A stretch of 64,000 nucleotides of DNA from a virus (Duplodnaviria; Caudoviricetes), in IMG/VR virus record IMGVR_UViG_3300033121_001357, positions 30,494-94,493 of that record. One strand, given 5' to 3'. The position numbers and the translations under genes are program-made. Below the pieces are notes generated by a model. The model did no database searches. It saw nothing but the letters and a program-made list of their open reading frames with translations, and was not told where the DNA came from. Position 1 is the stretch's first letter. Each line of letters starts with the position of its first letter. Shown here one piece after another: positions 37,513 to 43,358 of the stretch.

Positions 37513-40500
37513 ATGACCCGTCACGCCGCCGTCATCGCCGCCCTGGTCGCCCACATCAGCGAGCTCGGCGCCCAGGCCCCGACCCACCAGAACAGCCGCA
37601 AGAGCCTGGACGAGATCGCCGAGGCCTTGGGCGTCAAGGTGAAGGGCGCGAAGAAGGGGCCGGACCGGATCGCCACCGAGGCCTGCAACCGGGCCCGGAA
37701 GCTGTCCGAGCTCGACGCCGAGCAGATCGTCGACCACTTCGGCCTCGAGGAGCTGGTCGAGCCGTCCGACGAGAGCCTCGGCAGCGAGGAAGACGTCATC
37801 GACGCGAACACCCACATGGCGGCCAGCCTGGCCGCGAAGGAGGAGGCGATGCGGGAGAAGCAGGTCGCGGAGCAGATCGCGGAGAACGTGATGAGCGCCG
37901 TCGAGAAGACCGACGAGCCCATCACGGAGGAGAAGCGCGAGGAGCACGAGGAGGTGAGTGTGGAGCCGCAGAAGGTGGAGGAGAAGAAGGTGGACGAGCA
38001 GCCCAAGGTCGACAACCCCGAGCCCAAGGTGGAGGAGAAGGTCGAGGAGAAGAAGCCGACCAAGGAGGAGCTCCTCCAGGCCGCCAAGGACTTCGAGCAG
38101 GTCGCGCAGGGCCAGGTGCCCGCCACCGTGCTGAACAGCACGCGGCGCATCGGGCAGTGGACGCTGGAGCTGTTGCCCAAGAACGCGGGCTTCACCATCG
38201 TCAGCTCGAGCCACCAGAAGCGGAACATCTCCGCGACGATGGTCGCGGCCTTCGCCTCGAAGGTCCGGACGATCCCCGTGAATCTGACGGTCGAGAAGTT
38301 CGTCGGTCGGGCGAACGACAAGATCCTCAGCGAGCTGTACAAGTTCAGCATCGACGAGGAGAAGAACATCAAGGCCCGCGGGGAGTTCCTCGCCCGTCTC
38401 GTGAGCATCGAGACCGCGTCCGCGAAGGTCCTGGCCAAGGCCTCGGGCTGGAAGGCCTCGCACCTGCAGGGCGAGCGCCAAAAGATGATGCGGCTCTACG
38501 GCACCGCCAAGGACCGGATCGGAAACTTCAAGGTGGCGCTGGACACGGCGACCACCGGCGATCAGCACGCGGCGAACTTCTACGCCGCGGCCAAGGCGTT
38601 CGGGCTCCTGGAGGAGGGCGCGGACCTCTTCGGGCTGGACATCACCAGCTCGAGCGTCAAGGCGACGATCCCGCAGCCCCCGACGTCGCAGAGCGAGCAG
38701 AAGAAGCCCATCGAGGAGAAGCAGGTCGACAGCAAGTCGACCCCCACCGCGGCCACCGAGCCGCAGCAGGAGAAGCCCGTGACCGAGCGCAAGGCCGGTA
38801 TCATCAGCAGCAAGCTCTACAACGACCGCGTCGAGGTGCTCCGCAAGGAGCACTCGGCCTTCGTCGAGCACAATGAGGAGCGCGAGAAGAAGTTCTGGGC
38901 GGGCTTCGCCGGCCACGTCCAGAAGTTGAACGACCTGCTGTCCCAGCAGGCCACCAAGCACAACGTCCAGGCCGTCAGCAAGCTGATGGCCTCCATCGAG
39001 GACTCCTGTGCGGCCCGCATGGTGCGGATCCAGAAGCAGCAGGAGCAGCAGCAGGACGCGCCCGAGGGCGCCAACCAGCCGACCGATGAGTCGGTGAAGG
39101 AGACCGTCGTGAGCGAGCAGCAGCAGACCACCGAGGCCCCGATCAACACCCAGGATCAGGGGGGCGCGGGCGCGGTCGTCGAGACCAAGACCGAGACGGT
39201 GGTGGAGACCAAGGCCGACGTCAAGACCGAGCAGGCCCCCGAGGCCACGGTCGAGGTCGTGACGGAGGAGACCCCGAAGGAGACCTCGGAGCCCGACGCC
39301 GAGCTGGCGACCGAGGACAAGAAGGACGAGAAGAAGGAGGAGAAGGTGAGCAAGAAGGAGAAGTCCAGCAAGGGCAACTGGACGGTGTGGGGCAAGATCG
39401 TCGCCGCCGCCCTGGCCATGGACAACCGGATCGTCATGTGGGGCGCGCCGCGCAAGGCGCACCGGGACGACTACCAGAAGGCGCTGAGCGCCGTCAAGGC
39501 CTCGATGGAGGGCGCCGAGGACAAGCCGTCCAACGGCAAGAACGTCGGGGCGGTGAAGGCCCTGAACACGTTGCTGTTGGAGACGAACGGTTTGGTGACC
39601 GGCGTGGCCCGCGAGATCGTGGGGGCCCAGACCGTCACCATCGACGGCAAGACGAAGACCATCGCGGAGTGGGAGGGCGGGCAGCTCGAGGCCGTCTTCA
39701 AGAACGGCCACTTGCTGAAGGCGCGCGGCTTCCTGAACCGCAGCAAGCAGGAGATCCTGGCGAAGCCCGAGGCCAAGCAGGCCATCGCCACGAACCTCGC
39801 GGTGAAGCTCACCGAGATGTTGCAGGGGAAGCAGGACCTGCTGCTCCCGGTCCTCGCCCTGGCCTCGTTCTGGATCGGCCGCAGCGTGCCGACCACCGAG
39901 AAGTTCGGTCGGTGGATCAGCCAGCAGGTCGGTGAGATCAAGTCGGACAAGGACTTCGAGTCCTTCGTCTACGACCTGAACAGCCGGCGGAGCCTCGTCG
40001 AGCGCCTCGAGAAGACGGTGCCGAACGAAACCTCCTCGCTCATCGCGGCCAAGGAGAAGCTGGCCGAGATGGAGAAGAAGGCGAACGAGCTGGACGGGGA
40101 TCGCTGCGCCATCGAGCTGAAGATCGACGGGCAGTGGAACCCGGCCCTCTTCAACGAGAAGGACATGGGCCTCTCGTTCGAGGGCCTGCTCAACACCCAC
40201 ATGCAGAAGCTCCTGAACTTCTGCCACAGCGTCCGCACCATCGACGAGAAGGACCCGAAGGTCCTCAACGCCCTGCATATGTGCGGGGTCAGTGGGAAGA
40301 AGGACGAGACCGTCGACATCACCACGATCCAGCACCTGGCCCTGCAGGTGTTCTGGCTGGTGATGGACATGTGCAGCAACAGCCTCGACCAGAGCTGGTT
40401 CGAGGTGCAGTGCGCCCTCCGCAACATGGAGGCGCTCGAGGTCCAGTCCAAGACCCCGAACAAGCGTGGGGTCATCAAGGCCACGGCGTGGTTCATCTAC

Positions 40501-41190
40501 GTCGGCGGCCGGGCGGTGACCATCGCGGTCACCAACGTCGGCACCTGGGCCCTGCGGCCCGTCGCCGCGATCCTCGACTGCGTCAAGGGCGCGTACTACG
40601 CCATCCGCGGCAACGCGGAGAAGCGCAACGCCGCCTTCACCGCGGCCTGGGACGCGATCAAGGACATCTACCGGCTCCCGGTCAGCTGGATCAAGGCGGC
40701 CTGGAGCACGATCGCCGGCAAGTCCGGCAACACCCCCGCGGACAAGACCGCGGACAACAAGGAGGCCAACATGGCCGAGCAGCAGAAGAAGCCCGCCACC
40801 CGCAACTCCATCACCAGCCAGCCGTGGGGCGCCAAGCGCGGCACGGCGTGGGCGGAGCAGGGCTGGGCGGCCAAGGTCGTCACCGCCACCACGTTGCCCT
40901 TCCGGTGGATCGCCCGCAAGGCGGTCGACCACAAGCTCGAGACCGGCGTGGGTCTCGGCGTCGGCGGCGCGGCGGGCGTGGTCGCCAGCGTCGCGTACGG
41001 TGTGGGCGTGGTCGCCAGCATCGGCATCGGCGCGATCGGCGTGGCGGTCGGCGTGGGCCTGACCTGGATCGGTCGGAAGATCGTGGGCTGGTGGAAGGGC
41101 CGCAAGGCGGCGAAGGCCACCGAGACCGCGACCACCACCGCGACCGAGACCGCCACCGTCACCACCGAGACCGCCGCCGCGGCCGCCTAA
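37513..41190 (+). CDS. Giant (1225 aa) protein with E/K/T-rich linkers and a C-terminal glycine-zipper membrane anchor
   Basis: AGGAG RBS; extreme GC3 bias; GVGLGVGGAAGVVASVAYGVGVVASIGIGAIGVAVGVGLTW. Confidence 0.8.
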   Translation: MTRHAAVIAALVAHISELGAQAPTHQNSRKSLDEIAEALGVKVKGAKKGPDRIATEACNRARKLSELDAEQIVDHFGLEELVEPSDESLGSEEDVIDANTHMAASLAAKEEAMREKQVAEQIAENVMSAVEKTDEPITEEKREEHEEVSVEPQKVEEKKVDEQPKVDNPEPKVEEKVEEKKPTKEELLQAAKDFEQVAQGQVPATVLNSTRRIGQWTLELLPKNAGFTIVSSSHQKRNISATMVAAFASKVRTIPVNLTVEKFVGRANDKILSELYKFSIDEEKNIKARGEFLARLVSIETASAKVLAKASGWKASHLQGERQKMMRLYGTAKDRIGNFKVALDTATTGDQHAANFYAAAKAFGLLEEGADLFGLDITSSSVKATIPQPPTSQSEQKKPIEEKQVDSKSTPTAATEPQQEKPVTERKAGIISSKLYNDRVEVLRKEHSAFVEHNEEREKKFWAGFAGHVQKLNDLLSQQATKHNVQAVSKLMASIEDSCAARMVRIQKQQEQQQDAPEGANQPTDESVKETVVSEQQQTTEAPINTQDQGGAGAVVETKTETVVETKADVKTEQAPEATVEVVTEETPKETSEPDAELATEDKKDEKKEEKVSKKEKSSKGNWTVWGKIVAAALAMDNRIVMWGAPRKAHRDDYQKALSAVKASMEGAEDKPSNGKNVGAVKALNTLLLETNGLVTGVAREIVGAQTVTIDGKTKTIAEWEGGQLEAVFKNGHLLKARGFLNRSKQEILAKPEAKQAIATNLAVKLTEMLQGKQDLLLPVLALASFWIGRSVPTTEKFGRWISQQVGEIKSDKDFESFVYDLNSRRSLVERLEKTVPNETSSLIAAKEKLAEMEKKANELDGDRCAIELKIDGQWNPALFNEKDMGLSFEGLLNTHMQKLLNFCHSVRTIDEKDPKVLNALHMCGVSGKKDETVDITTIQHLALQVFWLVMDMCSNSLDQSWFEVQCALRNMEALEVQSKTPNKRGVIKATAWFIYVGGRAVTIAVTNVGTWALRPVAAILDCVKGAYYAIRGNAEKRNAAFTAAWDAIKDIYRLPVSWIKAAWSTIAGKSGNTPADKTADNKEANMAEQQKKPATRNSITSQPWGAKRGTAWAEQGWAAKVVTATTLPFRWIARKAVDHKLETGVGLGVGGAAGVVASVAYGVGVVASIGIGAIGVAVGVGLTWIGRKIVGWWKGRKAAKATETATTTATETATVTTETAAAAA

Positions 41191-41542
41191 TTCCACAAAA
41201 GCGGTAGCAGACCGCTAGACTAGTCATCAAGGACTAGCAAAACAAATCTGCCGTCGTGTTCTGGGCCGACGCAAGATAGCCCATACAAACCAATTAAAGT
41301 CCCCTCTATATTGTCATAGAGGGTGGTAACCACAACAGTACACCAGAACTGACTAGGCAGCAGTTCTAGTGTACCTCTTCGCACTAGCCCTTTAGGGCAA
41401 GTGGGGAAGGTTCGAGGGACTTCGCTTTTATGCGGAGACCCCTCCTCTTCCCCAATGCCCTTGGGGCGCGGGTGCATTACAACTTTGCGTCTGCCTCGAT
41501 TTGGCCCTATGTCTATAAACCCTACTTTGAAAGGAAACTTCC

Positions 41543-42821: not shown

Positions 42822-42839
42822 CAAAGGAGCAACAACCAG

Positions 42840-43358
42840 ATGGAAACCCTCGGGAATATCCTGAGGGGCGCCTTCACTTGGGTGCGGGATTGGTTTGCGG
42901 GGCAGAACAAAATGGGTCGCACCATTCTGATCTGCGCCGTGACAACCACCCTCGCCGTGGTGACTGGAGGGCCTGCCTTCCAGTACGCCATGATCGCGAT
43001 CATCACCAACACCTTGTTTTGGCTCGAGGTGTGGGAGATGCCGCGGGTGATGCGCTTCCTCTACAAATGGGGCGCGAAGATTGACCTCATCCTCAGCGTG
43101 GCGAGCATGTTCGGTGGTGGGCTGTCCGTGGCAGCCTTCTTCACCGGCTTCATGTTCGGCTCGTATTTCACCATCTTCCGGATGATTCTGCTGCCCACTT
43201 GGGCTGCGTCTCACCCGGAGATGGTGGAGGACATCAACCGGCAGCGTGCCGAGAAGCAAGCTCGAGACGCTGCAAAGCGGGCGGCCAAGGCGCAGCCCAA
43301 GGTCACCAACACGCCGGATGGTGACTATCCGGTGATCGAAGGGGAGATTGTCGAATGA
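42840..43358 (+). CDS. Multi-pass membrane protein
   Basis: AAGGAG RBS; 3-4 hydrophobic segments. Confidence 0.75.
   Translation: METLGNILRGAFTWVRDWFAGQNKMGRTILICAVTTTLAVVTGGPAFQYAMIAIITNTLFWLEVWEMPRVMRFLYKWGAKIDLILSVASMFGGGLSVAAFFTGFMFGSYFTIFRMILLPTWAASHPEMVEDINRQRAEKQARDAAKRAAKAQPKVTNTPDGDYPVIEGEIVE

Follow-up and report, generated by a model that had tools for sequence, protein, structure and literature searches.

The stretch of DNA analyzed here (64,000 nucleotides (nt), hereafter the window, corresponding to bases 30494-94493 of the 94,493-base viral record IMGVR_UViG_3300033121_001357) encodes on its plus strand a giant protein of 1,225 amino acids (aa), named g1225, which is proposed to found an undescribed family in one uncultured clade of jumbo myoviruses. 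Features conserved among its relatives support the anchoring of this protein in a membrane by its C-terminal end, and its gene displays an extreme synonymous codon bias. With regard to its function, g1225 is tentatively seen as a non-structural protein that is tethered to the membrane on its cytoplasmic side, where it would serve as a scaffold together with small membrane proteins and a ligase encoded downstream. A first-pass annotation of the same DNA had described a giant, abundant, membrane-anchored early protein that would form a scaffold or membrane-remodelling complex with its neighbors. The reading frame at 37513-41190 and every sequence string quoted in that annotation are present; its observation is confirmed, and its interpretation is partly supported by the results presented below.

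The giant protein and its C-terminal membrane module

An exhaustive HMMER/phmmer search of 1.84 billion representatives recovered ten distant relatives of g1225 (E 3.5e-16 to 3.7e-4), with 26-32% identity over the matched stretches and 18-23% over the full length. Eight of them are 1,121-1,439 aa long and two are fragments; two further family members came from the clusters of the relatives. The alignment reveals a common plan, in which a short N-terminal helical domain is followed by variable acidic or Pro/Ala-rich linkers, a Lys-rich patch, and a conserved "WTV.G" motif that opens a central helical domain. Conservation peaks in the last ~270 residues; R985, G986, W993, W1012, P1056, K1121, and G1155 are invariant in the family, and W1113 is conserved. 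The parts of the g1225 locus are as follows:

37284..37512, plus strand: structured leader, 229 nt (minimum free energy (MFE) -97.9 kcal/mol)
37513..41190, plus strand: g1225 giant gene, open reading frame (ORF) of 1,225 aa with ten distant homologues
37513..37761, plus strand: N-terminal four-helix domain, residues 1-83, the best-predicted part (AlphaFold2 predicted local distance difference test (pLDDT) of 65-85 per 10-residue block)
37762..38112, plus strand: acidic Glu/Lys/Pro-rich low-complexity linker, residues 84-200, assigned by composition (pLDDT <50)
39055..39372, plus strand: second acidic linker, rich in Gln/Glu/Thr/Val, residues 515-620, with a conserved Lys-rich patch at its end (601-621)
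39376..40452, plus strand: conserved helical domain in the center, residues 622-980, present in the alignment of every full-length member (pLDDT 50-80 in parts)
40453..41082, plus strand: C-terminal membrane module, residues 981-1190, the best-conserved region
41083..41190, plus strand: Ala/Thr/Glu-rich tail ending AAAAA-COOH, and stop codon
41191..41542, plus strand: structured spacer between g1225 and the small-protein operon, 352 nt (MFE -133.1 kcal/mol, z score -6.17, 0 of 100 shuffles as stable)

The membrane module comprises the segment AAWDAIKDIYRLPVSWIKAAWSTI (residues 1043-1066), within which lies the 18-residue segment of g1225 with the highest amphipathicity (1045-1062, hydrophobic moment 0.59), the segment TTLPFRWIARK (1126-1136, with an LPFR motif at 1128-1131), and a Gly/Ala/Val stretch at 1144-1186, where the Kyte-Doolittle profile peaks at 1146-1181. 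It also contains an RG motif and a conserved proline, P1056, located inside the amphipathic helix. Small-xxx-small repeats occur in the hydrophobic hairpin (1144-1186) and in the aligned stretch of all members, which is 34-44 residues long. Lys/Arg residues flank the hairpin on both sides in all aligned members, and a basic stop-transfer-like patch is followed by the Ala/Pro/Thr tail. In addition, 12 of the 24 Trp residues of g1225 are found in its last 250 residues (4.8% versus 1.2% elsewhere, Fisher p 0.001), and the same enrichment appears when nine family members are pooled (3.2% versus 1.1%, p 1e-11). The Trp-rich amphipathic helices noticed earlier at the C-terminus are thus borne out. 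Membrane anchoring, which had also been proposed, is supported by the Gly/Ala/Val stretch between its basic flanks and by the conserved Trp-bearing amphipathic helices. No N-terminal signal peptide was detected in g1225. Since, in addition, the short Gly-rich stretch is bordered at either end by basic residues, the bulk and the tail of the protein would both be cytoplasmic, a topology that follows from sequence rules. The last residue is Ala in 13/13 family sequences (AA in 11/13 and SA in 2/13), while the tail preceding it varies freely. Such an Ala-Ala terminus may be an ssrA-like degradation signal that limits the lifetime of g1225.

The plus-strand frame is taken as real, since homologues were found for it and an antisense ORF of 1,255 aa (37429-41196) is a shadow of the high proportion of G or C at its third codon positions (GC3). 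An AGGAG sequence (37502-37506) lies 6 nt upstream of the ATG. The insertions and deletions of other strains in g1225 (21, 3, and 3 nt) are all in frame, and include a 21-nt deletion at 38077 in the first linker and a 3-nt insertion at 39115 in the second. Flexible charged linkers that tolerate such length changes account for about half of the chain, as would befit a tether or scaffold rather than a ruler.

The two spacers that flank g1225 contain neither an Rfam family nor a T-run terminator, and no sigma-70-like promoter was seen in the 229-nt leader. Consensus promoters (4 vs 4.5 expected) and terminators (14 vs 12.1) were not above the level of shuffles, and no 9-mer was common to three or more intergenic regions. 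Both spacers may be processing or stability elements. It also seems that some strains carry a different module right before g1225, since one contig from an RNA library joins 36769 to 37512, skipping a 170-aa ORF (36771-37283) and the leader, and another begins exactly at 37512.

The codon bias, placed earlier among the strongest of the window, is in fact the most extreme of 49 ORFs (GC3 0.98, effective number of codons (ENC) 29.5), with 25 of the 1,225 codons ending in A or T. The structural genes have a GC3 of 0.37-0.67 and prefer GCT/GCA, CTT/CTA, AGA, and GTT/GTA, none of which is used by g1225. Since g1225 has 115 Lys against 49 Arg residues and a G+C content of 0.42 at second codon positions (GC2), an amino-acid make-up unlike that of a high-GC organism, its bias sits at synonymous sites and does not reflect a high-GC ancestry. 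G/C-ending codons look favored, because the capsid gene has the highest GC3 among the late genes (0.67). The simplest reading is strong translation selection on a protein that is needed fast and in quantity; the abundance claimed in the first-pass annotation therefore stands as a plausible high output judged from the codon bias, and not as a measured level. Whatever its function, g1225 is a clean natural case of near-total synonymous optimization, and is relevant to the question of how translation is tuned by phages at a stage when neither their tRNAs nor their takeover functions are yet active. More generally, codon usage is bimodal in this one phage genome, with a GC3 of 0.37-0.67 for the minus-strand structural genes versus mostly 0.61-0.98 for the plus-strand genes.

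No family was assigned to g1225 in Pfam (E <=0.1), PHROGs (E <=0.01), or NCBIfam, and no Pfam domain (E <=0.01) was found in nine homologues. A tblastn search of 50,697 phage records gave no match, a word-indexed search of 5.8 billion proteins returned the query itself only, and the family profile produced three rows against PDB sequences (E 1.2-2.3), none of them usable. The four cultured jumbo phages whose terminases are the nearest also gave no match to the family profile (0/4). Searches of IMG/VR with g1225, the sequences P0015 and P0017, and alignment A2, as well as with the ligase described below, its alignment A3, and P0029, detected no DNA of the relatives; JGI metagenome contigs searched with A2 and P0019, and GTDB genomes searched with A3 and A2, yielded nothing. 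A match to a known unrelated family, which the first-pass annotation had named as counting against its proposal, was looked for in Pfam, PHROGs, NCBIfam, PDB, and viral folds, and none was usable. The family is therefore new in a limited sense: no known family or fold was matched, and no new mechanism is demonstrated. It marks an uncultured phage clade, with genomes of roughly 200 kb, that occurs in metagenomes from activated sludge, wastewater, and rivers.

Structure prediction with AlphaFold gave a mean pLDDT of 43 for the C-terminal 306 residues and of 45 for residues 1-1200, the latter model being all-helical with 829 of 1,200 residues below 50. Moderate confidence was confined to the N-terminal domain of residues 1-83, which aligns across the family and has predicted helices at 2-21, 26-38, 50-62, and 66-75, and to parts of 620-860 (pLDDT 50-80). 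With this poor model, Foldseek returned no PDB match at E <=0.001 (the top rows were alpha-pore-forming toxins and transporters, TM-score <=0.2), and a wide VIA-align search reached a best Z of 9.3, all matches being generic helical hairpins, including PspA/ESCRT-III, and none above noise. Residues 1000-1068 (pLDDT ~46-59) align to the hairpins of PspA, Snf7, CHMP, and IST1 at Z 7.5-8.5, below the noise level that the tool gives for helical models. Among viral folds in BFVD, two rows had E <0.001 at a TM-score of 0.06, and all matches had TM-scores <=0.09; the ESM Atlas contained no usable match for g1225 and gave TM-scores <=0.36 for the downstream protein g262. Empty fold searches with this model do not show the folds to be new. 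Residues 26-62 were also considered as a DNA-binding helix-extended-loop-helix (SAP/HeH-like) element, a candidate that had no Pfam support in seven N-terminal fragments (E <=10) and is retained as an idea only.

Small membrane proteins and the ligase downstream

The genes that follow the 352-nt spacer encode four small membrane proteins and a ligase:

41543..42031, plus strand: g162, small membrane protein with the N-terminal amphipathic helix MKKFFSGVWNAIK and the tail ..EAEVVDTEE
42033..42821, plus strand: g262, membrane protein with N-terminal MESIKKAWAWVTKPFRWVSAK..ITMPFRIVW, a WAW..PFRW helix, and the tail DAEIVE
42840..43358, plus strand: g172, membrane protein with the N-terminus METLGNILRGAFTWVRDWF, the top-ranked amphipathic helix, and the tail EGEIVE
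43355..43726, plus strand: g123, fourth small membrane protein, 5.7% Trp, no acidic tail, 4-nt overlap with both neighbors
43723..45867, plus strand: g714, ATP-dependent ligase, 714 aa (DNA-ligase PHROG phrog_114, E 4.4e-13, residues 537-712)

No Pfam, PHROG, or NCBIfam family was found for g162, g262, or g172. By hydrophobic moment, their N-termini take places 1, 2, and 5 among 47 ORFs, and each contains one to three Trp residues; g262 additionally has a second PFR motif and a coiled-coil-like region. The three tails share E[IV]V[DE]. When the looser pattern E[IVL][IV][DE] was sought in the last 10 residues of all 708 stop-to-stop frames that are 50 aa or longer in the 94.5-kb genome, it occurred in five frames, against an expectation of 0.0015 per frame; three of these are g162, g262, and g172, and the other two are spurious frames on the wrong strand inside structural genes. 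A single homologue of g262, P0028, was found (54% identity). Its first 24 residues are almost unchanged and its end, DAEIVE, is identical, while the 80 residues that precede this end have diverged, which argues that the acidic tail is under selection. The earlier statement that three of these genes end in a similar acidic tail is thus well founded.

The likeness between the giant and its neighbors proved to be of a more restricted kind. In a six-frame translation, the genome contains PFRW followed by I or V at two places only, one in g1225 and one in g262. In a single BLASTP comparison, the region of g1225 that carries LPFRW and the hairpin aligned to the N-terminus of g262 with an E value of 0.010 over 50 residues; the best BLASTP E values among the giant and its neighbors were 0.010 and 0.005, and 13 of 15 Smith-Waterman pairs were at noise level. 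Paralogy of the g1225 C-terminus and g262, considered on the basis of the BLASTP result, was rejected as homology with an hhalign probability of 0.3%. The shared motifs and the amphipathic N-termini noted in the first-pass annotation therefore stand, but homology does not, and the features common to g1225 and its neighbors are treated as convergent or modular motifs. Complex prediction for the g1225 C-terminal module with g262 gave a score of 0.00 twice, in runs without controls.

The ligase g714 has eleven metagenome homologues (47-51% identity), no match in the 50,697 phage records by tblastn, and Pfam matches below the cut-offs. K395, D397, and G398 of its KxDG motif are invariant in 11 sequences; together with the phrog_114 match near the C-terminus, this fits the nucleotidyl-transferase motif and OB-fold C-terminal domain of ATP-dependent DNA ligases. 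Kyte-Doolittle segments at 24-45 and 81-108 were detected, the N-terminal hydrophobic segments are conserved, and a domain of ~180 residues has no assigned family. A membrane-anchored ligase is unusual in itself. From g162 through g262, g172, g123, and the ligase to the gene after it, intergenic distances are -4 to +18 nt, so the small-protein and ligase genes are probably translated as one unit. With regard to linkage, the longest contigs of the giant homologues P0014, P0016, and P0020 measure 12470, 16174, and 9374 nt, and the ligase homologues P0004, P0007, and P0005 come from the same source on contigs of exactly 12470, 16174, and 9374 nt. These pairs of equal size are read as the same contigs, which argues that the linkage of giant and ligase is conserved in at least three other contigs. 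The link with the membrane ligase proposed earlier is upheld to this extent; an early infection compartment formed with it is no more than possible.

Genome setting and possible roles of g1225

The CheckV completeness of the record is 46%, which indicates a phage of ~200 kb. The head and tail genes lie on the minus strand (1-32 kb of the window), and the tail module extends upstream of the window with giants of 1,301, 1,815, and 2,016 aa and a baseplate wedge. The nearest relatives of the terminase are those of Moorella phage MTATph1, Bacillus phages WH1 and 0305phi8-36, and Acinetobacter phage ME3 (25-33% identity). A block of plus-strand genes spans 32.9 to 60 kb, where the G+C content rises from 0.44-0.54 to 0.52-0.66. 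The main features outside the g1225 locus are listed below:

2436-4943, minus strand: sheath
11644-12942, minus strand: capsid
15979-18051, minus strand: portal
20734-22719, minus strand: large terminase
Genome upstream of the window, L002 13558-19608, minus strand: 2,016-aa tail-module giant with M23-peptidase, endolysin-like, and tape measure protein (TMP)-like PHROG matches
Genome upstream of the window, L003 4608-10055 and 10055-13960, minus strand: 1,815- and 1,301-aa tail-module giants, with no such matches for either
32935-33552, plus strand: gene with GC3 0.93
36203-36622, plus strand: gene with GC3 0.91
47078-47668, plus strand: gene with GC3 0.90
53374-54225, plus strand: gene with GC3 0.89
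56787-60014, plus strand: gene with GC3 0.88

Several other observations were made in this region. An Rfam match to the Twister-P5 ribozyme (32770-32831, plus strand; 37.9 bits vs a gathering score of 37.6, E 2.5e-4) lies ~100 nt upstream of the first plus-strand gene (32935), within the 1.5-kb divergent region between the two blocks. The gene at 56787-60014 encodes a second orphan giant of ~1,050-1,075 aa, which looks globular and belongs to no Pfam, PHROG, or NCBIfam family. It is preceded by a T4 Rnl1-like RNA ligase (54851-56023, plus strand; phrog_562, E 1.5e-27, and Pfam RNA_lig_T4_1) and, after this ligase, by a protein (56010-56714, plus strand) with a borderline ribosomal L7/L12 C-terminal domain (25.8 vs 25.9 bits). 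A tRNA-Leu(CAA) gene (61320-61408) and an adjoining tRNA-like gene (61545-61631), both on the plus strand, were also found; ARAGORN assigns a four-base anticodon to the latter, and the Rfam tRNA threshold was met only by tRNA-Leu(CAA).

DNA nearly identical to this genome is present in activated-sludge, wastewater, and river metagenomes. One activated-sludge run contained 60% of the sampled words, with contigs that are error-free relative to this DNA, and three wastewater metatranscriptome runs contained ~18-23% of the sampled words each.

In the proposed scheme, which is preferred tentatively, g1225 would be made fast and in quantity from its almost fully G/C-ending codons, and would then attach post-translationally to the cytoplasmic face of the inner membrane by the Gly/Ala/Val hairpin and two or three interfacial Trp-bearing amphipathic helices. 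Its ~1,100 cytoplasmic residues (the N-terminal domain, the central helical domain, and flexible charged linkers) would form a tethered scaffold, to which the next operon would supply partners at the same site, i.e., the three small membrane proteins with acidic ends, the fourth small one, and the anchored ligase. Nucleic-acid end-joining or repair might then occur at the membrane, as is suggested by the combination of interfacial-helix proteins sharing an acidic end with a ligase that has its own anchor. Finally, the Ala-Ala-type C-terminus, if it acts as an ssrA-like degron, would limit the lifetime of g1225. Within this scheme, the topology, abundance, timing, and partnership of g1225 are inferred, as are the degron and what the ligase would do at the membrane. 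A non-structural context is indicated by the location of g1225 on the strand opposite the head and tail genes and by the tight ligase operon downstream. A more elaborate version is regarded as improbable and is offered as speculation: a jumbo phage from outside the nucleus-forming lineage would build an early membrane station for its genome, in which g1225 would form a brush of disordered charged arms on the inner membrane face, the three small proteins would dock to it by their common acidic ends, the anchored ligase would process incoming or replicating DNA, and dismantling would be timed by the Ala-Ala end.

Other roles have to be weighed against this proposal. The giant and the small proteins might constitute a host-takeover or exclusion set that acts on host division, transport, or superinfection, or that titrates ClpXP/FtsH by the Ala-Ala end, with the ligase as an unrelated neighbor. 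Runs of small early membrane proteins are typical of the exclusion and takeover genes of large phages; hydrophobic segments were found in 7 of the ~20 proteins of the plus-strand block that were examined, and the fast evolution of the family is of a kind often seen in host-interface proteins. However, linkage to the ligase is kept in the other contigs, the conserved membrane segments of the ligase itself suggest a shared site of action, and positive support is lacking, no PADLOC or anti-defence search having been made; this explanation is considered unlikely. Somewhat less likely still is that g1225 is an ejection protein carried in the virion, whose linkers would span the periplasm and whose hairpin would enter the inner membrane from outside and help the DNA to cross, the small membrane proteins being fellow parts of the conduit. 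The size, helical content, TonB-like Glu/Pro/Lys linkers, and terminal hairpin of g1225 are reminiscent of internal or ejection proteins, the lack of a signal peptide would be expected of a packaged protein, and among the weak BFVD matches are internal virion proteins as well as structural and tape-measure proteins. These matches nevertheless superpose with an rmsd >30 A at the TM-scores given above, the gene lies opposite to all recognized head and tail genes and in a compact operon setting that includes a ligase, no structural gene has a similar codon usage, and the basic residues that border the hairpin are consistent with a cytoplasmic location of both flanks.

A lysis function, in which the small proteins would be a holin/antiholin-type set and the giant a membrane regulator of lysis timing, is very unlikely. 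Small size, hydrophobic segments, and charged C-terminal ends are generic holin traits, and g162 and g172 are indeed small, with several hydrophobic segments and charged C-terminal ends; the tails are, however, acidic, the genes are translationally coupled to the ligase, and no holin, endolysin, or spanin family of Pfam, PHROGs, or NCBIfam matched the small proteins. No endolysin is adjacent, and the sole lysin-like domain found is inside the 2,016-aa tail protein. The same tail protein bears on the identification of g1225 as a tail tape measure, which the first-pass annotation had itself singled out as an outcome that would contradict it. A length of 1,225 aa, a mostly helical prediction, and a hydrophobic Gly-rich segment would suit a TMP, and rows labeled as TMP appear at BFVD ranks 4, 9, 14, and 19, at E 1e-3 to 5e-2 with TM-scores <=0.09 for a query model with a mean pLDDT of 45. 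Yet this slot is already filled by the minus-strand tail module, in which the 2,016-aa protein matches TMP PHROG and M23 peptidase families, and g1225 lies more than 30 kb from the sheath, has no TMP family match, contains long disordered acidic linkers that are polymorphic in length, and uses codons foreign to the structural genes. A TMP role is scarcely credible on this evidence.

Several points also weigh against the scaffold proposal itself. The RNA-library contigs are of low depth and are scattered over all of 30-50 kb, structural genes included; they can neither rank genes nor rule out carry-over of DNA, and the parts they do not cover are uninformative. The codon bias of g1225 is partly regional, as the five other plus-strand genes listed above have a GC3 of 0.88-0.93. 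Between the giant and its neighbors no homology was detected in the hhalign comparison of two family profiles (g1225 vs g262), and P0028 occurs on contigs of <=5,347 nt whose sizes match no other contig. The last 40 residues of the family proteins are 18-40% Ala, which makes a terminal Ala less surprising than it would be in an average protein. As the structural models are poor (mean pLDDT 43 and 45), the claims on topology and domains rest on sequence rules; the hydrophobic stretch is just 34-35 residues in two members, and may alternatively form a single long helix that would place the tail of g1225 outside the cell membrane.

If the membrane-tethered scaffold is real, large phages would have a second, unrelated route to organize the first minutes of infection at the membrane. 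Its components would be well defined (anchor module, docking motif, tethered ligase, and possibly a built-in timer), and each of them could be tested on its own.

Comparison with known systems

Several features of g1225 recall described motifs and domains. Glycine-zipper two-helix membrane domains (Pfam PF05433, PF13488, and PF13441) are similar to its Gly/Ala/Val stretch, in which small residues recur every few positions and a tight helical hairpin is likely. These Pfam models did not match g1225 at E <=0.1 or nine homologues at E <=0.01, and glycine-zipper domains are mostly found in small outer-membrane lipoproteins, whereas the hairpin described here lies at the end of a giant cytoplasmic protein. 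In NCBIfam NF040918 (LPFR motif small protein), as in g1225, (T)LPFR(A/W) precedes a hydrophobic segment. At E <=1, 5 of 13 family members match this model, the best being P0015 with 22.3 bits over 13 residues (cut-off 40); in the genome itself it scores 12 bits at g1225 and 11.8 bits at g262, and the same loose threshold gives matches in 13 of 14 control genomes. The likeness is one of motif resemblance only.

The end of the family proteins can be compared with degradation tags. In a screen of C-terminal tags in E. coli, Ala at the last two positions was the main feature of ClpXP-dependent degrons, and enrichment was about six-fold lower for a tag with AS at its end than for the AA tag (PMC10862746). 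The g1225 family likewise has Ala-Ala after a non-polar or small residue, but its members end in AAA, VAA, or ASA and not in LAA, and two of them end in SA.

With regard to infection at the membrane, jumbo phages that form a nucleus, such as phiKZ-like phages, pass early on through a membrane-associated stage, the early phage infection (EPI) vesicle, where specific early proteins gather at a lipid site and to which DNA replication enzymes do not localize (10.1101/2024.03.24.586471). The system proposed here differs in that a ligase belongs to the gene set of g1225; a vesicle, lipid rearrangement, or DNA shielding would be hypothetical for it. The terminase of this phage, moreover, is nearest to those of MTATph1, 0305phi8-36, and ME3 (25-33% identity) and not to that of phiKZ.

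Protein p16.7 of phage phi29 consists of an N-terminal transmembrane helix, a coiled coil, and a C-terminal DNA-binding domain. This architecture is not matched by g1225, whose anchor is C-terminal and for which no sequence or fold relation to any solved structure was found. While p16.7 and p1 of phi29 are small, g1225 has 1,225 aa and long disordered linkers, and the partner enzyme is a protein-primed polymerase in phi29 and a ligase at the g1225 locus. Both phi29 proteins are nevertheless described as non-structural phage proteins in or on the cytoplasmic membrane that recruit replication machinery, p1 being a membrane-associated early protein (PMC4974454). They provide the nearest working analogy for g1225, the likeness being one of working and not of sequence.

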